Shown here piece by piece: positions 1 to 22,566 of a stretch of DNA of 64,000 nucleotides. The DNA comes from a virus (Duplodnaviria; Heunggongvirae; Uroviricota; Caudoviricetes): the IMG/VR virus record IMGVR_UViG_3300012979_000028, positions 21,985-85,984 of that record, one strand, 5' to 3'. Position numbers and translations under genes: made by a program. How positions within the stretch are numbered: the first letter of the stretch is position 1; every line of letters begins with the position of its first letter. Under the pieces are notes generated by a model. It worked only from the letters and a program-made list of their open reading frames with translations. It was not told where the DNA came from and did no database searches.

Positions 1-636
1 GTCCACATTAGGTTCCAAGAGTGCAGGATTATTCTCTTTCCAGGCTCTATATAAACTAGTCGGACTGAAATTTGGATATAGTGTACGAATTCCTACTCCA
101 AGACCTTCAATCAAACCCCCTTTCATATATAAACATAAAGGCAAAGGGAGCGGAATATATGTTGGTTCTAGTGGTCCTTGTGGTGATTCTTCGTATGGTA
201 CCTCTTTGATTAAGTCCCCAATAATATCCCAATACAAGTCACTCAGTCTATTCTTTGTGTATCTGGTTGCTGCATGTGGGTTTTGGGTTCCATCTATGTC
301 TGTATTACCAAAGAATCCATGACCAGAAAATACTCCAGACCTAACTAACATTGCATTTAATCCCTCACAACCGTCTGTAGAATGTGGATGAACCTCTGAT
401 AATGAAGGAACAAATTCATGAGTAGGTACATCTTTTCCTCTCGGGTGTTTTGTCATCATATAGATTATTCTCTTATATGATACTTTACAACCATCCGCCA
501 CATTTGCAATAGCTCGGTGTGTATTAACGTAAGAGCCGTATAATGTATAACACTCTTCTGCCAATTGTCCTACAGGTAATGGTTTTATACACTCTCCCCC
601 TAGACTTTGACTATTATTATTTTTCTTCTTTGCCAT
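1..636 (-). CDS. DNA topoisomerase II medium subunit (GyrA/ParC-like, T4 gp52-like), N-terminal part; gene continues beyond window start
   Basis: ATG at 634-636 on minus strand. Translation MAKKKNNNSQSLGGECIKPLPVGQLAEECYTLYGSYVNTHRAIANVADGCKVSYKRIIYMM... matches the GyrA N-terminal signature ([21 protein letters not shown]). It is absent from the ORF track because the window edge truncates it. Confidence 0.75.
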   Translation of the reverse strand, partial: MAKKKNNNSQSLGGECIKPLPVGQLAEECYTLYGSYVNTHRAIANVADGCKVSYKRIIYMMTKHPRGKDVPTHEFVPSLSEVHPHSTDGCEGLNAMLVRSGVFSGHGFFGNTDIDGTQNPHAATRYTKNRLSDLYWDIIGDLIKEVPYEESPQGPLEPTYIPLPLPLCLYMKGGLIEGLGVGIRTLYPNFSPTSLYRAWKENNPALLEPNVD

Positions 637-641
637 AGTTT

Positions 642-1028
642 TTAAATATCTGTGAAATTATATGGATTAGTTAATATACCTTTATTCATTAACAGCTGCT
701 TTCTTGCATTAATATCCTCTACAAGTTTCATAGCATAATCAGCCCCGTCCGGAACCACCTGATATAATCGTCGTTTAGTCTCATCGTAGAAAACATCATA
801 TATATCATCTTCATCAAGACTTCCAAGGCCCTTAAAACGACGATAGTGTTTATTTGGATCCATACCAACTCTAAAAGGTGTCCCCGGAATTACTGGATCA
901 GACGGATAATAAAATACTCCATTCTGTTCAAATATCGGAGACTCTATGACATAAAGTAATCCAAAATCTATAATAAATCGTGCAAACTTTAAGAAAGCAT
1001 AACACAATCCATTTCGTATAGCATATCC
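642..1028 (-). CDS. DNA topoisomerase II large subunit (GyrB-like), exon 2 (T4 gp60-like C-terminal region)
   Basis: The frame stays open upstream of the tracked TTG start back to GGA at 1026-1028. The product GYAIRNGLCYAFLKF...RFKGLGSLDEDDIYDV aligns with GyrB GSHIRTLLLTFF...YKGLGEM. Stop codon at 642-644. Confidence 0.7.
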   Translation of the reverse strand, partial: GYAIRNGLCYAFLKFARFIIDFGLLYVIESPIFEQNGVFYYPSDPVIPGTPFRVGMDPNKHYRRFKGLGSLDEDDIYDVFYDETKRRLYQVVPDGADYAMKLVEDINARKQLLMNKGILTNPYNFTDI

Positions 1029-1349
1029 CAGTTATGTTTAGAATTAGTCGTCTACTCTAATCCTGAGATTTCTCTCCTCATACTCTCATATGAGCTCAGA
1101 CTATATTTTCACCTTCATCATTACATGGTCAGGTGTTGTATCTTTCGAACAGTCATTAATAGACTTACTGTCCTACTCTCTTTCGAGATAGTCGTTGAAG
1201 TTTATAAAATCTTACTCTTACAAACTGCGGATTGTCCCTATCATAAAGATTTTTACTAAAGATTTAGTACTTTATGCCTAACAGGAGTTCCCCGCTTTTA
1301 ATACAATTATACGGTATATATTTCTATATACTAGGACTATTTTTAGTTA
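1029..1349 (-). mobile_element. ORF-less group I intron inside topoisomerase II large-subunit gene
   Basis: On the minus strand it contains P7-forming R/S elements (CGACUAUCUCGAAAGAGAG ... GAAAAUAUAGUCUG) and a shared core AGTAAAAATCTTTATGATAGGGACAATCCGCAG. It is the same family as the introns in the polA gene. No ORF. Precise excision joins ...ATDADED to GYAIRNGL..., restoring the Toprim DxDxDG motif. The in-frame stop at 1347-1349 is intronic. Confidence 0.65.
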
Positions 1350-2966
1350 ATCCTCATCTGCATCTGTTGCTATCACAATTTTAGAAAATCTAGTATACCT
1401 CTGAATAAGTTCGTAAGCTTCTTCTGGGGTTTTTGCATCTTTTGTTACATTATTTACATCAATCCCTAGACCGATTAATTTAAAGATTGTGAAAAGCTCT
1501 TTATTATCCATTGCTTGATCTGCGGAAGAGTCTTTTACATTTTTAACCTTACCGCGAAGAGGCATTACTGCATTATACCTAGTGTCTTTTCTACCTTTCT
1601 TTAGTGAACCTGCAGCAGAAAGTCCTTCACACAAAAACAGACTACAATTCCATCTATCAGGAGCTGTCGCATCGGCAAAACCATTAGCAATTTCACCCTT
1701 CAGCTTATATACTCCTCTACCACCAGCATCATCAATAATCTTCTGAGCCTTATCAATCGCACTCAGGGACTTCATAGATTCAGCCAAGTAATTAAGTTTA
1801 TCTAAGTGAGCTGACCAGTAATCTTCATTCTTCTTAAATATCTTCTGAAAATCCTTAAGAACCTCACTGAAATCACCCTTCTTAACTTTTGTAATCTGCT
1901 TTAAGTTCTCCTTGGTCTGCGAATTAAATTGACACTCATTAGCTAGAACAATACAGACAAACTTCAGGCCATTTAGTAGATAATCATGCTTGACTTTGAA
2001 ATAATCCTTGAATGCATCCTTGAATAGATTCTTTACTAGGCTCATATGGCATCCATCATTACAAGTCAATCCATTTACACTACCGGCTGAAACTACATTA
2101 CCAAGTCCAGGGTCAGCTTCAAACGTAATATAAATACCTACCTGCTTGTTATAACTTGTATCCCTCGGCACTATAGTCTCCGTAATTTCAAACTTATACG
2201 GACTAAAACTACTTCTGATATTCTCTCCATTCACTATAACATTAACACGCTTCTTATAAAACTTTTCCTGAATTAATAAAAAGTATTGTAAGTTACTGAG
2301 AGGAATTTCTACATTAACGTTATCAAAAATTGTAGGATCCGGCTTGAATAATACTATAGTACTCTGACCCTCCGGGAGAGATATATAACCAGGGACATCT
2401 TTGAAAATCTCCTTCTCTAAGTCCCCAAGTCTACCAGCTCCTTCATATACCTTTAATCCTTCTTCCATGACTAAGATATAATAGAGATCCTTCCTGACTC
2501 TAGGCCCACTTTTTTCCCAAGCCTCATTTACCGCCGGAATTGATCTATTATAGTTATTCTCCGTAATCTTGGATAGAATAATATAGGAGCTCGACGTAAA
2601 ATTAACAGCACTAGATCCAATACCATTCATTCCTACTCTGGCTATTGTATCAGTTCCATCAAATTTACTACCACTATGAAATTCTGTAATACTAAGTTCT
2701 GCGGCGGTAATATTTGGCTTGTCTATACTCATACTAATCGGCAAACCTCTTCCATTATCCGCAACAAAACAATACCCATTAAAGTTATTACTAATTAAGA
2801 TCGTATCACCATAACCACTAGAAATCTCATCACAACTATTGTCTATGATCTCTCTGATAGTTATATTCGCATTCTCCGTAGATCCAAGGTACATTCCAGT
2901 TCTTCGTCTACATGCATCCCTTGGTGATAAAAATCTGATCTCTTCTTCGTTAATCTTTTCACTCAT
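1350..2966 (-). CDS. DNA topoisomerase II large subunit (GyrB-like ATPase + start of Toprim; T4 gp39-like), exon 1
   Basis: N-terminus MSEKINEEEIRFLSPRDACRRRTGMYLGST is typical of GyrB/topo II. A GHKL ATPase region follows. It ends IVIATDADED at the start of the Toprim motif. Confidence 0.85.
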
Positions 2967-3027
2967 AGTTTTTTATTTTTTTTTTATTTATTATCATTCT
3001 CTATTATAAGGAAAATAACCTGGTCTA

Positions 3028-5022
3028 TCATTCCTTTCTTTTAATTAATCTAAATCCTTCTTCGCGTTTCCCATTAACTGTAAAAACGCATCTCTTTAAT
3101 TCGAAATATTCTTCTAGATCTGTAGCTTTAGGTATTCTTGTTGATCCTAGGTCTGAATATATCTTCTTTAATTTTTCTTTTATTTCTTTTCTCATATATA
3201 ATTGATCCTCTTCAAAGTTCTTTAATATGGCTTCACTTAATGCAGTTGAACTAAAACCAGAATCTCTTTGTCCATTCAACTCTTTCTCTAAGTTCCCTTT
3301 TCTATATTTTAAATTTCTACATCTATCTACACCTAACACCGTATAGATTGATTTATAGATTAATGGAATTTGGTCTAAGATTACACTAAGTTCCTCTTTT
3401 TCTAAGACAGTTTCACAAAGTAGTTTCATTTTATCTGGAAATTGAGATAGGTTATTAAAGGCTGTCAAAAACTTTACCACTTCATCATCTCTATCTACCA
3501 GGCTTAAACTCTTTAAAGTATTAAAAACAGAAAATCGATCTTTATAATCTACCTGTTGTATATCAAAGGCTCTCTGCTCCGATACTAAGACGAGTTTATT
3601 TAATATAGGTACAAGATTTTTTCCTGTATGCTGATTGACTGCAACATAATGACTTTTATAATTAAACGTCTGAGCTAATTTTAAATATTCACCAGCTAAC
3701 GTACCTTTACTAGTATCTGGACTAGACTCGTATGAAATAAGTAAATCATTTGTTTTCTTTAACTTCTCATTAATAAAAGCATTAAACTCATCTCTACTTT
3801 TTACAACCTTTGAGGTCTTATAATAAAACTCAGCTCTATTTTTCCAAGGATTACTATCATTTCTCTGTCTTCCTAGAATTTGAGGTAGGTCTAAGGATAT
3901 GTCTACGCTCAAAGTTTCTATGTTAGCATCACTCAATACTATAGTTCTAGCATTAGTTGAATAAAAATCAGCTCCCAAGTAGACGGTTCTTGTACAAAAA
4001 GTAAACATCTTATGAGACTCTCCCTTTAATGGAATCTTGCCTATCTTCCAACCTTTTCCAAGTCTTCTCTTTAATTTTAAAACATTATCTGGAGTTCGGG
4101 CTACTAAGATATTACACTGCTCAGGCTTTAATCCACACTTATTGATTATTCCAAGTATATTAGATACTGAATTAACATAAAATACGGCTTCTCTTGATTC
4201 TATTGTTTGTATATCACCATTCTCATCTCTATAATTAACACTTTCAAATTCTCCAGAAAGATATTTACTAATAATTTCATAAGCCGGTTCATTTACACTT
4301 CTGCAGGTTTTTATTATTAAATCTGGTTTAAGTACTCTAAGTGGATCTTGAGTTTTCCAATCTAATTCTATATATGGCAAATCTTTAAATTCATCTAACT
4401 GTTCAAGATACTCATCAATCATTGGAGTAGCTGAAACAAAACTAACTTTATTGAGATTTTGAAGTTGAGAAATAAACTCTAACTCAGTTCCAGATTTAAA
4501 CCTAGAATCTGTAAAAATGCTCTGAAACTCATCTACTACTATTCTAAAACTACCTAATAAACTACCTAAAGTCTCTTTAACTAACCTGAAGGAATCATAC
4601 GTTACAAGAATTTTTATAGGCTTTTTCTCACAATAACATTGATCAACATAAGACTTTATTTTATTCTTAAGCTCTTCAATAATCTTTCTTCTTACTTCTT
4701 CTGGTGTAATGTCTACTAATCTGGTTGAAACTTTAGTAGAACCTTTAGTAACCTTTTCCAAATCTTTATCTACTGCTTCATCCTGATCTAGTTCATTTTT
4801 TACATAAAGTATTTCTCCAGGATGTTGGTTTTCTTTATTCTCTAATAGTAATTTTCTTGGAGAACAAAGGATAATGTCTTCAGAGTTAGTTATACAATAT
4901 TCAGTAAAACCACAACCAGGTATCTTTTTATCAATGATACATGGATAATCAGGAATAGTAAAACCATTCCATTCACTTAAAAATCTGATTCCTTTTGGAA
5001 CTTCAATCGTTTCTTTCTTCAT
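3028..5022 (-). CDS. putative SF2 helicase-like protein
   Basis: 664-aa ORF with a DExQ-like box (IVVDEFQ) and a SAT motif (FVSATP). Walker A is degenerate. Function is tentative. Confidence 0.45.
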   Translation of the reverse strand: MKKETIEVPKGIRFLSEWNGFTIPDYPCIIDKKIPGCGFTEYCITNSEDIILCSPRKLLLENKENQHPGEILYVKNELDQDEAVDKDLEKVTKGSTKVSTRLVDITPEEVRRKIIEELKNKIKSYVDQCYCEKKPIKILVTYDSFRLVKETLGSLLGSFRIVVDEFQSIFTDSRFKSGTELEFISQLQNLNKVSFVSATPMIDEYLEQLDEFKDLPYIELDWKTQDPLRVLKPDLIIKTCRSVNEPAYEIISKYLSGEFESVNYRDENGDIQTIESREAVFYVNSVSNILGIINKCGLKPEQCNILVARTPDNVLKLKRRLGKGWKIGKIPLKGESHKMFTFCTRTVYLGADFYSTNARTIVLSDANIETLSVDISLDLPQILGRQRNDSNPWKNRAEFYYKTSKVVKSRDEFNAFINEKLKKTNDLLISYESSPDTSKGTLAGEYLKLAQTFNYKSHYVAVNQHTGKNLVPILNKLVLVSEQRAFDIQQVDYKDRFSVFNTLKSLSLVDRDDEVVKFLTAFNNLSQFPDKMKLLCETVLEKEELSVILDQIPLIYKSIYTVLGVDRCRNLKYRKGNLEKELNGQRDSGFSSTALSEAILKNFEEDQLYMRKEIKEKLKKIYSDLGSTRIPKATDLEEYFELKRCVFTVNGKREEGFRLIKRKE

Positions 5023-15289: not shown

Positions 15290-16499
15290 ACATAGGTTCA
15301 CTACGCCTATGCCGAATCTTATTTCAGCTATTAGTCTCCCAATAGGCCAGACTATATCTTCACTATAATAATATAATATAATATAATATAATATACTATA
15401 GTGTCTACCGTTTCGAGTATCAATCGTTTATACTCTACTCCCTTTCGGGATAGTCGTTGAATAAATTGCAAGAATTAAAGTAGTCAACTTTATTTCTATT
15501 ATTTACAGGATTTTCTTTAATAAAATCATCTACTTTAGTAGACTCTATTCTTAACTCTTTTACACCATTATTTACTAATGTCTTTTTAGGAGCAGAATAT
15601 TTTCCTCTCTTTTTTCTAGCAGGTTCTATTCTTCCTATAAATTTATAATCTTTATATTGATTAGACCCTATCAGTGATTTATCAACTAAAATAGATTTCT
15701 GTCCATTATTAATCCAAATTTTACCAAGATTAGGAGAAATTAAATTTCCTTTATTAAATCCCATTTCTCTATATTTTTCGTATTCATTAGGGTCTATCAT
15801 TTTAGATACTACCCCATTATTAACCCAGATAGTTCCTTTTAGGAAATTATGTTTACATGACCCTAAATTAAAACCGTTATCTAAAAATCTAGGAATATCT
15901 TCTTGATAAATGTAAATATCATATTTACCATCATTTACACAGATAGACCCTTCTTTCCATCCTGGTTTTCCATCAATAGAAACATTATATCCGAAAAGTA
16001 CTGAATCATATTCTTTAATCAATTCAGTTTCTCTTAGAAGTATTCTGTCGTAATTACTTGGAGTATCTTCATCCTCTATAAAGATGGAAAAATTATCTAT
16101 ATTAATATTCATGTTATGATACATTCCCCTACATTTAAATTCATTATTGCTTCTAAACAATATTACGTGCCCGTGAAATCCATCATAAAGTCGTCCAGGC
16201 AATCCATATTTAGCAGTCCCTATGTAATTTTTATTAGTAGATTTATCATGTATCCTATATAACACTGATTTATAATTTAATAATGGTTCTGGTAAATTTT
16301 CAATACCGTTAATTAAGTCTTTAAATTTAAATTCTCTCATTTTTTTTTATTTATTTTTATCTTTATTGCAATTTACTGCTGATTGACTCTATCTAAAGGA
16401 TTTTTACTATTGTGACTAAATCAATAGTACCTTTAGCTTAACAAGTTGTTCCAGCAATTAAGTAGATTTAAAGTGCACCATTTCTAGTTAATGCACTAC
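15290..16499 (-). mobile_element. group I intron with GIY-YIG homing endonuclease ORF
   Basis: The 3' core (P7: CGACUAUCCCGAAAGGGAG ... GAUAUAGUCUGG) sits at 15300-15440. The 5' core (AGTAAAAATCCTTTAGATAGAGTCAATCAGCAG) sits at 16375-16420. The ORF lies in between. Confidence 0.6.
15435..16340 (-). CDS. GIY-YIG homing endonuclease with NUMOD-like repeats
   Basis: SVLYRIHDKSTNKNYIGTA ... RETELIKEYDSVLFGYNV matches GIYxIxN..YVGSA/R..E..N of I-TevI-like enzymes. C-terminal WVNNGV/IWINNGQ/LVNNGV repeats. Confidence 0.75.
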   Translation of the reverse strand: MREFKFKDLINGIENLPEPLLNYKSVLYRIHDKSTNKNYIGTAKYGLPGRLYDGFHGHVILFRSNNEFKCRGMYHNMNINIDNFSIFIEDEDTPSNYDRILLRETELIKEYDSVLFGYNVSIDGKPGWKEGSICVNDGKYDIYIYQEDIPRFLDNGFNLGSCKHNFLKGTIWVNNGVVSKMIDPNEYEKYREMGFNKGNLISPNLGKIWINNGQKSILVDKSLIGSNQYKDYKFIGRIEPARKKRGKYSAPKKTLVNNGVKELRIESTKVDDFIKENPVNNRNKVDYFNSCNLFNDYPERE

Positions 16500-16559: not shown

Positions 16560-16852
16560 CATAAAACCACTTGCCATTCAGTTTATCCAATATTTTCATA
16601 CTGGCCCGGACTATATCATCTTCCATTTATTTAATCTGGAAGGACTGCACTTCGAAAGATGGAATTTCACCACCAATCTACTCCTTCTCAGGATAGTCTC
16701 TACACCTTCTTATTTCTAAGCTTGGCACGGGATTAGCATAGATTATACACCCTTAGCTTTCCCCGTTAGCACTATTTCCATAGCACACCCTAGTTTTTCC
16801 AGGTTCACAGTCTTCTCATATAATATTACTACTATACGGCACAATTTTGTTT
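16560..16852 (-). mobile_element. ORF-less group I intron (B-type)
   Basis: Shares the core CATAAAYAAWTTGTGSCCNTATAGG...CACTTCG...GATAGTC...AAGCTTGGCACGG...GATATAGTC with the copies at 16874-17140 and 19759-20034. Confidence 0.55.
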
Positions 16853-16873
16853 ATGCTTGAAGTTCCTCCTTGT
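16853..16873 (-). CDS. family A DNA polymerase, 21-nt micro-exon (Q-G-G-T-S-S)
   Basis: ACAAGGAGGAACTTCAAGCAT lies between two B-type introns. Joined to the upstream exon it gives ...NLPIQGGTSS, matching the PolA N-x-P-[IM]-Q-G-[ST]-A-A motif. Confidence 0.4.
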
Positions 16874-17140
16874 CATTAATGTTAACTTTAAGTTCATTTT
16901 CCTTAAAGATCAGACTATATCATTATCTATTAATATATAGATAGATCGCACTTCGAAGAGAAGAATTTCACATCTCTTCTACTCCTTTTCAGGATAGTCG
17001 TTACACTTTCTTACTTATCCAGTAAGCTTAGCACGGGATTGGCATCTCAGCTTTCCCCGTTAGCACTATTTCCATAGCACACCCTTCTAGGTTCACGATC
17101 TTTTCGCTTATAAGTTACCCTATAAGGCCACAAATTATTT
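16874..17140 (-). mobile_element. ORF-less group I intron (B-type)
   Basis: 5' end AAATAATTTGTGGCCTTATAGGG right after exon ...CCCAT. P7 GACUAUCC/GAUAUAGUC. P9 hairpin CTTTAAGGAAAATGAACTTAAAG. Ends ...TTAATG. Confidence 0.6.
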
Positions 17141-17431
17141 ATGGGTAGATTCACTCCAAGTCTTTGAATTCTGGCTTCTTGATTCTTTTTCTCTCTTTGA
17201 TTTGTTGCAGCTTGATAATACTTCCACTCTTGAACTTGTAACTTATCACCTAACATAGTATTAATATATCCGTCGTGTGTTAGTGGATATTGCTGTTGAG
17301 AAGCCACATATTCACGAAGCTTAGGGAAACTCTTATAAAGTCCCTGAATAATATCCTCAGCCTCTTCTTCAGTTGCATTAAGACGTTCCGCTAGTGATTT
17401 TTTTCCAAGTCCATAAAGCCAATTTTTTTTT
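17141..17431 (-). CDS. family A DNA polymerase exon (motif B distal part: ...LYGLGKKSLAERLN...GYINTMLGDKLQVQEW...EARIQRLGVNLPI)
   Basis: Aligns with Klenow LIYGMSAFGLARQLN...GYVETLDGRRLYLPDI...AERAAINAPM. The tracked ORF 17047..17307 is read-through of this exon into the downstream intron. Confidence 0.6.
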
Positions 17432-18770
17432 CAAGGAGTATCGCTACTTCTCCCCGGTTCTCAGGTTTTATCCATGAACTCCTATGAGTTTGCCTCACAG
17501 ATTAGACTATATCTTCATCTTTATTTCTAAAGAGCTTACCGTTTCCACTATGCGAATTTTATAGTGTACTCCCTTTCGGGATAGTCGTTGAGGTTCAATC
17601 TGAAGATTGATTAGTCAGACCAATCTTTTTTATTTCATCTATAAGAGTTTGAGAGTCTGTAATTACATCATACGGATACTCAAATTCTTTTCCGAGATTA
17701 GAGTAGTATAAAACTTTAATACCATGTTCAGTACAAAGGTCTAACTTATTCTTATCTCTTAGTTTTACTTCTTTTAAATTATCCTCTCCTCCAAAGAACA
17801 CAACACTTTTAAAATGTTGAATTCCTTGACATTCAATAATAATATTATAGTCTGGTAAGTAAAAATCTACAAATTGTTTAGAATTATACACCAGCCAATC
17901 CCATGATTTTTGTTCTTCAGCCTTTATTGAGTTTTCATTTAAAATATTTCTTACGTAATCCTCTAAATGGGAACTTTTCACACATTGCGGGCATCTACAG
18001 CCTTGTAAATGGCTCTGAGCTTCCTGGAAAAACTCCCCATGTTCCGGACAGATTATACAAACTTCATCATGAAGATTATTAAATTTAACATTATCATAAT
18101 TATATCTAAAATTATGAATTTTATTTCCTCTTTCTTTGAAAGTTTCAATAGGCATTCTAAATCTTTTTGATAAATTAATTAATTTACAATTAGGACACCC
18201 TCTTCCAATTAGATGTTTAGAAGGACTTTGTTGAAATTCAGTTCCGCATTTATTGCATATTATTGTAACTTTTTCACTAGATCCTTTATAATCTACTTTT
18301 GAATAGGAGAAATTATTTCCATGTATTTTGGAAGCCTTTAATAGAAAATCATCCAGGGAAGTTCTAATTGCCTTCATCTTCTCCTTTCCGCAAATTGGGC
18401 AACCACATCCCCTTAAATGACTTCCAGCTTGCTGATAAAATTCATAATTGTGATTATTACATATAATAGGGATTTTATTTTTTGAACTAATACTATTATC
18501 TACTTTAGAATAATCATATTTATCTCCATGAATTTTTCTTGCCCTTTCAATAAATTTTTCTATAGTTAATTTTTCACTCATTGTACATTGTAATTAAATT
18601 TTATTTTAGATTAAACCTGCTGATTAACTCTATTCACTAGATTTTTACTATAAGCGACTAAATCTTATAGTACTAGTGACCTACGTAAATGTTAATTTAC
18701 TTCGAGTTTTTCCAGCATTTAGTAAGTAATAATTAAGTATCGCTACTTAACAGCGCACATTTTATTATAC
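17432..18770 (-). mobile_element. group I intron carrying a homing-endonuclease ORF
   Basis: 5' core at 18600-18770 (ACTTACTAAATGCTGGAAA...AGTAAAAATCTAGTGAATAGAGTTAATCAGCAGG). 3' core at 17432-17600 (CGACUAUCCCGAAAGGGAG, P8 hairpin CACUAU..AUAGUG, AAGAUAUAGUC). The ORF sits between them. Confidence 0.6.
17595..18581 (-). CDS. intron-encoded putative homing endonuclease: three zinc-ribbon repeats + Vsr/DUF559-like nuclease domain
   Basis: Triplicated module HG..Y.YSKV......K..IIC..HG.F.Q....HL.G.GCP.C. C-terminus FVDFYLPDYNIIIECQGIQHF resembles the DUF559/Vsr-type endonuclease core. Confidence 0.6.
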   Translation of the reverse strand: MSEKLTIEKFIERARKIHGDKYDYSKVDNSISSKNKIPIICNNHNYEFYQQAGSHLRGCGCPICGKEKMKAIRTSLDDFLLKASKIHGNNFSYSKVDYKGSSEKVTIICNKCGTEFQQSPSKHLIGRGCPNCKLINLSKRFRMPIETFKERGNKIHNFRYNYDNVKFNNLHDEVCIICPEHGEFFQEAQSHLQGCRCPQCVKSSHLEDYVRNILNENSIKAEEQKSWDWLVYNSKQFVDFYLPDYNIIIECQGIQHFKSVVFFGGEDNLKEVKLRDKNKLDLCTEHGIKVLYYSNLGKEFEYPYDVITDSQTLIDEIKKIGLTNQSSD

Positions 18771-18883: not shown

Positions 18884-19228
18884 CAAGGAGTATCGTTACT
18901 TCTCCCCGGTTCTCAGGTTTTATCCATGAACTCCTGTAAGTTTTTTTACCCTACAGATCAGACTATATCTTCATCTCATTTTTACATGAGAGCTTACCGT
19001 TTCCACTATACGAATTTTATAGTGTACTCCCTTTCGGGATAGTCGTTGAGGTTCAATCTATAGAGATCAAACCTGCTGATTGACCCTATTAAAGAGATTT
19101 TTACTGAGTATTCCTCTAGTACTCTTTACCTACGTAAATTGTAAATAATTTACTTCAGGTGTTTCCAGCATTTAGTAAGTTAGTTTTTCTTAGAATCACT
19201 TCTAAGCGACACTAATATTTAATGTCAG
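18884..19228 (-). mobile_element. ORF-less group I intron (C+A type)
   Basis: Same 5' core (GACATTAAATATTAGTGTCGCTTAGAAGTGATTCTAAG...AATGCTGGAAAC) and 3' core (P7/P8/P9) as the intron at 19315-19650. Confidence 0.55.
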
Positions 19229-19314
19229 TTCCATTATTAAATTTTTCAATCAAATCTGGGTCTAAACTAGCAAACCCCGCGCTCTTTACTTCTGCACTAC
19301 TACATTTATGTTCA
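19229..19314 (-). CDS. family A DNA polymerase exon 3 or duplicated pseudo-exon (...EHKCSSAEVKSAGFASLDPDLIEKFNNGT)
   Basis: Its first ~30 nt are homologous to the start of exon 18771..18883 (AACAYAAATGT...AGTGCRGAAG). Flanked by two near-identical introns. Confidence 0.3.
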
Positions 19315-19650
19315 GGAAAGTTCACTACGCTCTCCCCGTTCTCTTATGAACTGCTATGAGTTCCTTCCCCATAGATCAGACTATATCTTCATCTCTGTTA
19401 CCAGAGAGCTTACCGTTTCGAGTATCAATCGTTTATACTCTACTCCCTTTCGGGATAGTCGTTGAGGTTCTGATTATAGATTAGTTAGTCAGACCAGTTT
19501 TAAATCAAAACCTGCTGATTGACCCTATGATAGAGATTTTTACTGAGGGTGACTAATTCCTCTAGTACTCTACCCTTAACAGGTGTTTCCAGCATTTAGT
19601 AAGTTAGTTTTTCTTAGAATCACTTCTAAGCGACACTAAAATTTAATGTC
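19315..19650 (-). mobile_element. ORF-less group I intron (C+A type)
   Basis: See 18884-19228. P7 CGACUAUCCCGAAAGGGAG / AAGAUAUAGUCUG. Confidence 0.55.
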
Positions 19651-19758
19651 GAAATAGGTCATCACATAATCACAACCACCATAGATTATATTACCATTTT
19701 CATCCCAGCTTGGTGGAGTAACAATACAATCTTTTAGGTCTGCATGCGAAATAATTGT
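19651..19758 (-). CDS. family A DNA polymerase exon 2 (TIISHADLKDCIVTPPSWDENGNIIYGGCDYVMTYF; motif A region)
   Basis: This is the only open frame across the segment between the B-type intron 3' end (...AAAATTG|) and the next intron. Aligns with Klenow DPNLQNIP...YVIVSADYSQIELR. Confidence 0.45.
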
Positions 19759-20034
19759 CAATTTTGTTAATCTTTAAGTTCATTTTCCTTAAAGTTCAGA
19801 CTATATCATCACCCTTTTTATATTGGGTGAGCTGCACTTCGGGATAAGGAATTTCACCTTAAACCTACTCTCTTTCGAGATAGTCGTTACACCTTCTTAT
19901 TTCTAAGCTTGGCACGGTATTGGGAATCTCACCTTTCACCGTTAGCTCTATTTACATTTACATAGAACACCCTAGATTTCTAGGTTCACAGCTTTCTGCA
20001 CTTATAAGTTTCCCTATAAGGCCACAAATTATTT
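19759..20034 (-). mobile_element. ORF-less group I intron (B-type)
   Basis: Starts AAATAATTTGTGGCCTTATAGGGAAAC immediately after exon-1 ...GGATTCCAT. P7 CGACUAUCUC/GAUAUAGUCUG. P9 hairpin CTTTAAGGAAAATGAACTTAAAG. Confidence 0.6.
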
Positions 20035-22566
20035 ATGGAATCCTGAGCTCCATCTTTTAGAACTCTTTGTATTTACTTCATAATGTACAAAACACTTTTC
20101 TACAGCCCCTTGTTCTCCTGGATCTGCTTCTCTTAGTGGAATATGGTCTTCACCTTCGATCACCCACTTATTATTAGCCTTGAACATTCCGTCGATATAA
20201 GTAGAGAGGACTTTAGCATATTTTTTATAGAGAAGATAATTAATAACCAGCTTTCTCATAAATTTAAAATCCTCTTGTAGGTCAGACTCATCGAACGGTT
20301 TGCCATAATCTAGGTATTCTCCATTAACATAACCAAAGAATTGAGCTTGAGCGATAAATCCATTAAAGTTAGACCAGATTTCTTTAACTTGATCTGCATC
20401 TTGAGGAACCACAGTCACTTTTTTAGTACCATCTGCTTTAGTTTTAGTAGAGGTTGAAGTTTTAATAGTTCCTAGGTATTCTCTTGATAGGTTATAAACT
20501 TTTTCTGGATAGTCTCCCAAGTCCTTTCCTTCAGAGTTATAATAGTTTTCTGTAGAAGTTAGGAAATGTTCGAATGCTTTTTCTATACTATCTATTCCTA
20601 GGTTTTGATAGAATTTCTCTGCATCTTTGAGTTGTTGAGTAGAGTCTAGGATAGCAGCAAGGAAAGCAGTTTGATATTTATACAGTTCGGCGAATTCATG
20701 GCATATCAGATCATTTTCCTCTGGGCTAGTACACATAAATAGGTTCTTACTAATATATTCAGAGTATTCACTTAGAGTTAGCCAAGATCCGAATGCATAG
20801 ATTTTATCAGGAATGTTATTAATATCTTTAAGTTGGTTACTAGATATTTTCTTTAGTTCTTTATAAGCTTTTTCATAGTACATATATTTTTCTAGTTCTA
20901 TTAGCTTATTATCCACCTTAATAGAATCTAGTCCAATAAGTGTTTTAATTTTTTCAGCTATAATTCCTAAGATTTTCTTTTTCTTAACAATTCCATCATC
21001 TATCTTAGTTTTCATTTTAACTTCGGTCATAGAACTTCTTACAATATCCATGAAGTCCCCAGCAAAAGTGTCACCATAGCTCATTCTAAGACTACCTTCA
21101 TTTACTCCCGTATCATAAGCATCCATTGTGTCTATGTTAGAAGATAGGATATACTTAGTTATCTCTAGTGGATCAGCATTAAAGAACTTACCGTCACGAA
21201 TTAATTTTTGAGCAACCGGATGGAATTTCTTTATATTAGCCATTTTACTAGAGTGTGTATTCATTTTAATCTTACATCTAGCGGTAGCACAATAAGTTAT
21301 TCCCCAAGCCATCATTTTCAGGGATTCGTTATGATATTGAAGTCTAAAGTTTTCATCAATATACAAACCGCTCGAGTGAAGAAGAGAGCCTAGTCTGGAA
21401 TTATCAAGGAAAGTTTCAAATGCATCAGTACTATATTCATTTTTCTTAGATTCATATAGCATTAGTGTATAGAAAGCATCCAAGTTACAGTAATAGCCTA
21501 AGATATCACTAGGAATACACATAAACGGATTTCCCCAATATTCTAGGATAAGACTTTCGAATTCTTTCACGTAGTTAGGATATCTTGTACTTAGTTCTGT
21601 CCACTCCGGCGTATTCTTGAAATTGCTCTGATCTACCTTAAGAATTTTTTGTCTATCTTTCTTGGTAGTTCCGGTAGTAGTAAATAGCATCTCATCAATC
21701 AAGTCAGAGATTCTATCAAATTCAGTATCCCATGCATTGACTCCTAATATATTTTGAGCTGTCCATTTGAGGGAATATTTCTTCAAGTGATTTCCATCCA
21801 AGACATTAATAGTAGAAGCGTCACAGAGATTATAAAGAGTTACACCAAGCATTCTATGACTAACTTGGAACTCGTACTGCATATTATAGACCCATATCTT
21901 TCTTTGTCTTTTCTCCAAGAATTCACCAAGTCTCTTCAGTAGTTCTAGGTATTCTCCGGGGGTATTATTATGTCTACAATCTGTAAAGCTAATAAATCCA
22001 CCAAACTGAGAATTACATAAAGATGCTCCAGATATTTCAAACCATTTATCCAAGGGCATACCAGAAGCTTCATAGTCAAATCCAAAGTTAGTATCTTCAG
22101 GGAGGCTATCCATATAATTTATCATGTTAATAGACTCCTGAACGTTATGAAGTATTTTGTGTTTAAAGTTGAAATTAACCTGTTGTGTAAATTCTGGAGA
22201 TAAGAAGTAGTTTATATCCTCTTCTTTCGGTTTATCATCTCCAATACATTTCACAAAAGCGCCACCCTCTATGGATAGTCTTTTTAATTTACAACAGTCT
22301 GAGAAGTTTTCATTACGTATACCAAAATGAAAATACTGTCTCAAACATGAAAAAGCACCAGGGTCAGCTAACAATACACCATCCCCAGGCCCTAATGTTT
22401 TTACTAATTTAATTTCTTCGTCAGTGAGTACGGGTATTTCTGATTTTCTACTTGATGTTCTAGCGATTAATATACTTTCACTAGTAGAAATACCATCAAT
22501 GAAAAAATAGTTGTTATTGAAACTACCGTTTTCATCTGAACTTAGAATAATTAATCTTTTGTTCAT
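20035..22566 (-). CDS. family A DNA polymerase, exon 1 (3'-5' exonuclease domain + N-terminal part of polymerase domain)
   Basis: Exo I FGFDYEASGM. Exo III YCNLDAFYTLML. C-terminal part ...KVLSTYIDGM...FVHYEVNTKSSKRWSSG aligns with Klenow KSTYTDKL...HTSYHQAVTATGRLSS. The tracked ORF terminates 3 codons into the intron. Confidence 0.8.

Follow-up and report, generated by a model that had tools for sequence, protein, structure and literature searches.

The large subunit gene of the type II topoisomerase of this phage ends inside the Toprim DxDxDG motif and reopens 321 nt further downstream, and the question raised by the locus is whether the two parts are joined in one spliced message. The gene lies on the minus strand of the window, which means here the whole stretch of 64,000 nt that was analysed. 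By conceptual translation, the ORF 2966..1347 encodes 539 aa with the C-terminus IVIATDADED (FSKIVIATDADED) directly followed by TAA, and the minus-strand frame reopens at 1028 with GYAIRNGLCYAFLKFARF (GYAIRNGLCYAF, GYAIRNGLCYAFLKF). The original prediction had described a first exon ending in IVIATDADED plus a stop and a continuation on the same strand after 321 nt; both statements were borne out, the continuation being in frame from position 1028. The gap had also been called ORF-less, and the ORF list of the window indeed contains no minus-strand ORF of at least 30 aa within 1029..1349. While the features lay at the coordinates given for them, the strand (minus) and the family of introns occupying several sites of this gene were missing from that description. 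The gene and its downstream neighbour are arranged as follows:

2966..1350, minus strand: exon 1 (1617 nt, divisible by three; 539 codons) of the gene for the topoisomerase II large subunit, encoding the GHKL ATPase, the transducer and the beginning of Toprim as far as D535-A-D537-E-D539.
1349..1029, minus strand: intron, 321 nt, an ORF-less group I intron of subgroup IA type.
1347..1349, minus strand: in-frame TAA, the first three intron bases, at which translation of unspliced RNA ends directly after D539.
1028..642, minus strand: exon 2, 387 nt, 128 codons plus stop (stop at 644..642), encoding G540 of DxDxDG, the remainder of Toprim, the KGLG motif and the C-terminal tail.
636..1, minus strand: start of a GyrA-like topoisomerase II medium subunit gene (Pfam PF00521, E = 9.9e-13; phrog_551), which runs off the window.

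Directly upstream of the topoisomerase gene lies an ORF of 664 aa (3028-5022, minus strand) without a Pfam or PHROGs match; the same neighbour is kept in two of the related loci described below (L002 and L004).

Fusion of exons 1 and 2 gives a complete phage topoisomerase II large subunit of 667 aa. The fused protein matched phrog_543 (DNA topoisomerase II large subunit) in one stretch from residue 2 to residue 650 (E = 1.5e-86), and the Pfam Toprim match covered residues 443-548. The best matches among solved structures were topoisomerase IV subunit B and gyrase B (E = 2.8e-39). The alignment with ParE (4juo) was gapless across the junction (skiviATDADEDGyAIrnglcyaf versus dkiiiMTDADTDGaHIqtllltff), in agreement with the collinearity with GyrB that had been proposed for the fusion. 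The break falls on a codon boundary of the Toprim DxDxDG motif (D535, D537, D539, G540), with the third Asp before it and the Gly after it.

The protein encoded by exon 1 is identical to database protein P0009, which comes from a contig of 325,884 bp. A second assembly from another sample was 100% identical over 3,845 bp including all 321 nt of the intron. Because the two assemblies carrying the identical 321 nt (ERZ27246411 and SRR6059713) come from separate samples, an assembly artefact can be ruled out. The phage that carries the gene is a huge phage of the gut type, known from a contig of at least 326 kb. The GC content of the intron is 33%, the same as that of the flanking sequence. Comparison of positions 600-3000 with 50,697 phage records at the DNA level gave only short matches of 72-75% identity, covering 5% of the query and all outside the intron, so no close relative is known in this phage collection.

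The boundaries of the intron were set by intron-less alleles. The intron-less relatives, with 84-95% identity, are uninterrupted at the predicted junction and read GATGAGGAT/GGATATGCT (here and below, a slash in an exon sequence or motif marks the insertion point). At the protein level, the intron-less homologues P0001 (667 aa, 90% identical), P0002, P0004 and P0007 are continuous through ATDADEDGYAIRNGLCYAF; intron-less homologues are 667-669 aa long, and their junction is identical to that of the fused protein. The DNA of locus L002, whose gene is 95% identical, reads GCAACAGATGCAGATGAGGAT/GGATATGCTATACGAAATGG and is identical to both exon ends of the window for 57 nt. The sole pair of boundaries that reproduces the intron-less sequence lies after T1350 and after G1029, exactly matching the coordinates 1029-1349 of the original prediction. 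Precise removal of the intron restores the host reading frame of 667 aa, with GAUGAGGAU-GGAUAUGCU as the expected junction of the ligated exons. Written as RNA, the DED/G site is GCAGAUGAGGAU/GGAUAUGCU; the counterpart in L003 is GAAGAU.

The gap had been interpreted as a group I intron, with an Rfam search suggested as a check. In this search the whole RF00028 model matched 1354..1077 with 40.2 bits (E = 8.1e-09 locally and 8.6e-07 for the 64-kb window), which together with the presence of all core helices and with covariation upheld the interpretation. The match stayed below the gathering score of 50 bits, a curated threshold and not a biological feature, and RF00028 also overlooked the clear homologue in L011. 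A default Rfam scan therefore overlooks the intron. Unconstrained folding with RNAfold yielded -84.3 kcal/mol versus -62.3 +/- 4.8 for shuffled sequences (z = -4.58), and 0 of 100 shuffles were as good. By hand, 15 helices were placed (P1, P2, P3, P4, P5, P5a, P5b, P6, P7, P7.1, P7.2, P8, P9, P9.1 and P9.2), and all of them are fully paired. The minimum free energy (MFE) fold contained all of these helices but P7, which is pseudoknotted with P3. The elements of the fold are:

1350..1354, minus strand: P1 5' strand, the last five exon bases AGGAU, with a U1350.G1337 wobble at the 5' splice site.
1333..1337, minus strand: internal guide sequence GUCCU, the P1 3' strand (helix map, MFE fold).
1314..1331, minus strand: P2 hairpin GUAUAUA-GAAA-UAUAUAC, six of seven pairs with compensatory changes.
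1301..1306, minus strand: P3 5' strand UUGUAU, pairing with 1141..1136 (AUACAA), four of six pairs compensatory and 100% of cells paired.
1227..1295, minus strand: P4-P5-P5a-P5b domain, in which all seven pairs of P5a covary.
1200..1225, minus strand: P6 hairpin with a loop of 10 nt, which in relatives holds an HNH endonuclease ORF.
1189..1193, minus strand: P7 5' strand GACUA, pairing with 1103..1099 (UAGUC) in a pseudoknot with P3 (Rfam alignment; compensatory GACCA:UGGUC in L007).
1148..1188, minus strand: P7.1 (UCUC-GAAA-GAGA, 1188..1177) and P7.2 (GACAGU...ACUGUU, 1172..1148), seven of ten pairs compensatory.
1110..1135, minus strand: P8 hairpin CACCU...AGGUG (MFE fold, helix map, covariation).
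1041..1094, minus strand: P9, P9.1 (GAAA loop) and P9.2, a peripheral 3' domain common to the L002 intron, with the same architecture in intron B of L047.
1029, minus strand: terminal guanosine (omega G), the last intron base, set by the only boundary giving the intron-less sequence.

The presence of two helices, P7.1 and P7.2, between P7 and the 3' strand of P3 characterises subgroup IA in the Michel-Westhof classification. The intron is accordingly designated IA-type, an assignment made from the presence of these helices and not from subgroup-specific models. By analogy with other group I introns, P7 would be the guanosine-binding helix.

Covariation was scored in six sequences, namely the window intron and its homologues in the topoisomerase gene of related phages (one each in L002, L011 and L007, two in L001), among which two pairs are close relatives. 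The endonuclease ORFs were cut from the P6 loops before alignment, and 63 named pairs from P2 to P8, including the pseudoknot, were scored; P1 was excluded from the count as the alignment is unreliable there. Standard pairs occupied 95.9% of the cells (63 pairs, n = 6), compared with 40-45% when the 3' partners were slid by one to three columns. Both sides had changed in 36 of the 63 pairs, and none of 500 shuffles reached any of the five covariation measures. P3 occurred as UUGUAU:AUACAA, UCGUAU:AUACGA, UUGUGU:ACACAA, UCCUAU:AUAGGA and UCCCGU:GCGGGA, and P7 as GACUA:UAGUC, with GACCA:UGGUC in L007. For P1, exon and guide were read directly. The pair AGGAU:GUCCU is found in the window, in L002 and in L047 intron B, CGGAU:GUCCG in L011, L007, L021, L026, L029 and L047 intron A, CAGAU:GUCUG in L001 intron 1, and CUGAU:GUCAG in L006. 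From one insertion site to the next, the guide sequence thus varies together with the exon end.

We consider it about 92% probable that 1349..1029 is a self-splicing group I intron of the IA type, without an ORF of its own, inserted in the Toprim DxDxDG motif after the codon for D539 and before that for G540. Splicing at this locus is proposed from the chemistry of group I introns. The gene would be transcribed as one pre-mRNA, in which P1 would arise by pairing of the guide GUCCU with the exon end AGGAU, the U.G wobble lying at the splice site, and the P3-P9 core would fold and bind guanosine in P7. The guanosine would attack after U1350, and the freed exon 1 would then attack after the terminal G1029, joining GAU to GGA in a single reading frame of 667 aa. 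Unspliced RNA would give only the truncated product of 539 aa, because the intron starts with TAA.

Compared with L002, exon 2 has 20 base differences in 16 codons, all of them synonymous and none non-synonymous, and compared with L003 there are 50 synonymous and 11 non-synonymous codons. As 16 of 16 codon differences from L002 are synonymous, exon 2 appears to be translated in the frame of exon 1. Within exon 2, codons 547 (TTG) and 595 (ATG) are the first in-frame start candidates, and no terminator-like site was found between the exons. The exclusively synonymous changes, the late start candidates and the absence of a terminator fit one spliced message and argue against a two-chain enzyme or a pseudogene.

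A splicing-dead intron, which would make the gene of this phage a pseudogene, is very improbable on these data. Such a state would be in line with the Rfam score under the gathering threshold and with the DED/G insertion being known from one phage only (two identical contigs). It would also be in line with the 3' splice site: P10 pairing with the 3' exon is impossible at DED/G, where the first base of exon 2, a G, faces an A, while the relatives at KGL/G have two such pairs. However, both exons are free of stops and frameshifts, the codon differences of exon 2 against L002 are of the synonymous kind throughout, every core helix is perfectly paired, and no second large-subunit gene was seen in the window. 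For a functional intron at this site, exon ligation could be less efficient because P10 pairing is lacking.

The gene might also be split without being spliced, the exons being translated separately into an active enzyme, as in T4 gp39 and gp60, and the RNA element being a relic. The T4 topoisomerase II large subunit, cut inside Toprim, works as two chains, and the ORF list of the window contains an ORF of 121 aa starting with TTG at 1007. This arrangement is nevertheless very improbable. The break lies inside DxDxDG without added terminal extensions, which all MobA-type splits keep. A start at the TTG of codon 547 would lose G540-G546, yet these codons are conserved and show synonymous changes only. 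Finally, the ribozyme core is intact and covarying, which is unexpected for a relic.

The first part of T4 gene 60 ends with NVAIMTDADHDG (MTDADHDG) and is followed by a 50-nt gap (TAG...GGA), after which the second part starts with LGSIYP. BLASTP aligned IATDADEDGYAI with IMTDADHDGLGS, which sets D45-G46 of T4 against D539-G540 here. The parallel with T-even phages in the original prediction is thus closer than had been stated, since the alignment with T4 gp60 puts both interruptions at the same position within one codon. According to Manning and Atkins (bioRxiv 10.1101/2022.08.31.505936), all bypass cassettes lie within one codon of this position, in other phages at G46 or D45, and D45 is part of the Toprim motif. 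The two cases share the gene family and the spot, and in both a selfish element sits in the Toprim metal-binding motif without destroying the protein. They differ in mechanism: in T4, insertion of mobA divides the large subunit into gp39 and gp60, and ribosomes in addition hop over 50 nt, whereas removal of 321 nt by RNA self-splicing is proposed here. The T4 cassette and the window intron have no sequence relationship.

The position within one codon of the T4 hop, and the fact that homologues of this gene do carry inteins, would suit a gap that is crossed by the ribosome or removed as an intein, but the gap contains a complete group I fold, and the probability of either is close to nil. A bypass of the T4 gene 60 type was rejected, since the gap is 321 nt long versus 50 nt and the take-off and landing codons are unmatched (GAU before the gap, CUG at its end). 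An intein was rejected as well; the gap has many stops in the exon frame from the first codon on and is not translatable through. Inteins in type IIA topoisomerase B subunits, carried by many homologues of this gene, are likewise selfish elements in catalytic motifs, but they are removed at the protein level and lie in another motif (LFL/CEG).

It is textbook knowledge that phage genes for DNA metabolism can carry group I introns in conserved motifs, and the window intron adds one more example of this kind. Introns of subgroup IA from virulent phages include those of T4 td, nrdB and nrdD, of the DNA polymerase gene of Bacillus phage SPO1 and of orf142 of Staphylococcus phage Twort. Like the window intron, these have P1-P9, P7.1 and P7.2 between P7 and P3', P9.1 and P9.2 at the periphery, and they end in G and have their 5' splice site marked by a U.G pair. 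They also interrupt a DNA-metabolism gene in a highly conserved catalytic motif, with an in-frame stop close to the intron start. The td intron has the I-TevI ORF in its P6 loop, as the relatives of the window intron have an endonuclease ORF there, and Twort has ORF-less copies comparable to the window intron. The difference lies in the host gene and site, which here are the topoisomerase II large subunit and the step between D and G of DxDxDG.

Intron-rich genomes have been described among the jumbo gut (Jug) phages; according to the main text of that study, 136 genomes contain 2,513 introns, on average 18.5 per genome, and the interrupted genes named there are terL, nrdD and DNA polymerase (PMC12880540). 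The same text reports metatranscriptome reads confirming splicing for 37 of 76 predicted group I introns of related jumbo gut phages, and it gives 'DNA topoisomerase IV' among the conserved single-copy genes without naming the topoisomerase II large subunit as interrupted (PMC12880540). Full-text literature searches, covering PMC12880540 by its main text, turned up no description of a group I intron in the type II topoisomerase gene of a phage. Jug and crAss-like phages resemble the present phage in their huge AT-rich genomes, in which essential genes are fragmented by numerous short group I introns and by inteins, and which encode HNH endonucleases both inside introns and as free-standing genes. 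The Jug phages, of which the present phage may or may not be a member, have a GC content of 27-30% (33% here) and a size of 360-402 kb (here a contig of 326 kb).

With the present locus, type II topoisomerase would join the few phage genes known to harbour group I introns. The locus also bears on annotation, as gene callers give this essential enzyme as a truncated protein of 539 aa and an orphan ORF of 121 aa. Because gene callers split the enzyme and Rfam at its curated threshold overlooks the intron, topoisomerase genes of huge gut phages are expected to be mis-annotated unless splicing is modelled.

The same gene was mapped by tblastn in 43 loci on contigs of 200-400 kb. Introns outside the covariation set were judged by eye from the guide pairing, the P7 strands and the terminal G; RF00028 found none of them. 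The insertion sites, in the numbering of the window protein, are:

G/QNGIG, in the ATP lid: intron in L026.
EG/LSPAG, in the Toprim glutamate motif: intron of 212 nt in L030 and L034.
LFL/CEG, near residue 447: mini-intein of about 138 aa in L028 (3817-4232); PF14890 inteins in P0005-P0018, P0030-P0032 and others.
ATD/A: intron in L001, L007 and L011.
DAD/xDG: intron in L006, L021, L026, L029 and L047.
DED/G: intron in this phage only.
KGL/G: intron in L001, L002 and L045/L047.

In huge phages, introns and inteins frequently interrupt the gene for the topoisomerase II large subunit. The Toprim DxDxDG motif is a repeated landing place, with three intron positions within five codons in related phages in addition to the T4 hop. 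Relatives of more than 80% identity include intron-less, intein-bearing and otherwise intron-bearing genes, and this patchy distribution among close relatives is the pattern expected of mobile elements.

Scans of IMG/VR and of JGI metagenomes with exact patterns for the intron core and for the exon-intron junction gave no match, and a degenerate P3'-P8-P7' pattern led to L044-L048. RF00028 had no match in L002 and L003, the former with a 1.2-kb ORF in its intron and the latter intron-less. It also had no match in nine loci searched together (65 kb), even for the clear homologue L011. The model is insensitive to this intron family, and surveys based on Rfam will undercount it.

Short introns of another type were observed in L030 (3830-4041), L034 (3500-3711) and L026 (2774-2960), with the 5' ends CAAATTAGGCCGTTT in L030 and L034 and CAAATTGGCCGTTT in L026. 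They occupy EG/LSPAG and G/QNGIG, in both cases after the exon bases GGT, and have no Rfam match; judged by eye, one intron type here again occupies two different sites. In L007 (6735-6750) the 3' junction GAACGAAACAG/CAGATTCT lacks one base for an intact frame if the canonical 5' splice site after CGGAU is used; the close homologues in L011 and L001 have AAAATG/GCTGAT. This could reflect a shifted splice site giving TD/SDSDG, a decaying intron or an assembly error.

The nearest relative of the window intron is that of L002 (4820-6377), with 91% identity over the aligned positions; by BLAST, the 5' parts are 85% and the 3' parts 92.5% identical. The L002 intron lies at KGL/G, 68 codons downstream of DED/G, and carries an HNH_3 ORF of 401 aa in its P6 loop. 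Intron B of L047 (3302-4831), in a host protein of 59% identity, is also found at KGL/G and has the same guide, the same layout of the 3' domain and an HNH_3 ORF of about 400 aa in the P6 loop. Pairwise identity among the HNH ORFs of L002, L047 intron B and L001 intron 1 is 39-41%, although they belong to introns at different sites. By descent, the window intron belongs to a family whose members carry HNH endonucleases and are inserted at several conserved motifs of the topoisomerase gene in related huge phages.

No HNH ORF of the L002 type was found anywhere in the window. What is left in the P6 loop of the window intron, a UAA and the 3' stem, aligns with the end of the L002 ORF and points to deletion of an endonuclease ORF. 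The window intron is probably a relocated derivative that has lost its endonuclease gene, and owing to this loss it would be unable to home by itself. By parsimony, KGL/G would be the older site and DED/G the derived one, since L002 and the distant L047 intron B are both at KGL/G. With near-identical genes and near-identical introns at different sites, the window and L002 offer a natural test case for the spread of an intron to new sites.

The only exon bases shared by DED/G and KGL/G are the five bases AGGAU, the partner of the guide. This is predicted by integration through reverse splicing, and it would equally be left by selection for splicing after any mode of insertion. The P1 match was rejected as proof of reverse splicing; the spliced gene holds seven AGGAT sites, and any surviving insertion must pair with the guide. 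It is conceivable, at clearly less than even odds, that the intron moved recently from KGL/G to DED/G by reverse splicing and not by endonuclease homing, and that the T4 cassette and the intron converged on one Toprim phosphodiester bond.

The empty KGLG site of the window (816..833, codons 605-610, KGLGSL) reads AAG GGC CTT GGA AGT CTT versus AAA GGA TTA GGC TCA TTA in L002. The recoding is synonymous and amounts to 12 differences in 60 nt, compared with 0-3 in the neighbouring bins. Because no GGAT is left, pairing with the guide is lost at this site. The recoded site is possibly an endonuclease-resistant allele or a co-conversion tract.

Including the topoisomerase intron, RF00028 gave seven matches in the window. 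The others are:

16587-16862, 16891-17150, 17482-17709, 18934-19231, 19354-19655 and 19777-20044, minus strand: six further group I matches, two of the six below the gathering score.

These six introns fragment one gene between the ORFs 20029..22566 and 15435..16340. They have 42 invariant alignment columns in common with the topoisomerase intron, including CAACGACTATC..GAAAG.GAGTAG and GATATAGTC. The original prediction had stated that the core is shared with polA introns. The shared core was confirmed; the label polA depends on a weak match of one exon of the gene at 15.4-22.6 kb to DNA polymerase I (PDB, E = 7e-4), and Pfam and PHROGs gave no name to the large ORFs of this gene. The gene interrupted at 16.6-20.0 kb may, on the strength of this weak match, be family A DNA polymerase-like. 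Among its introns lies an ORF for an HNH endonuclease of 328 aa (17595-18581, minus strand; phrog_559, E = 5e-62; Pfam DUF4379 treble-clef finger), the start of which overlaps the weak intron match 17482-17709.
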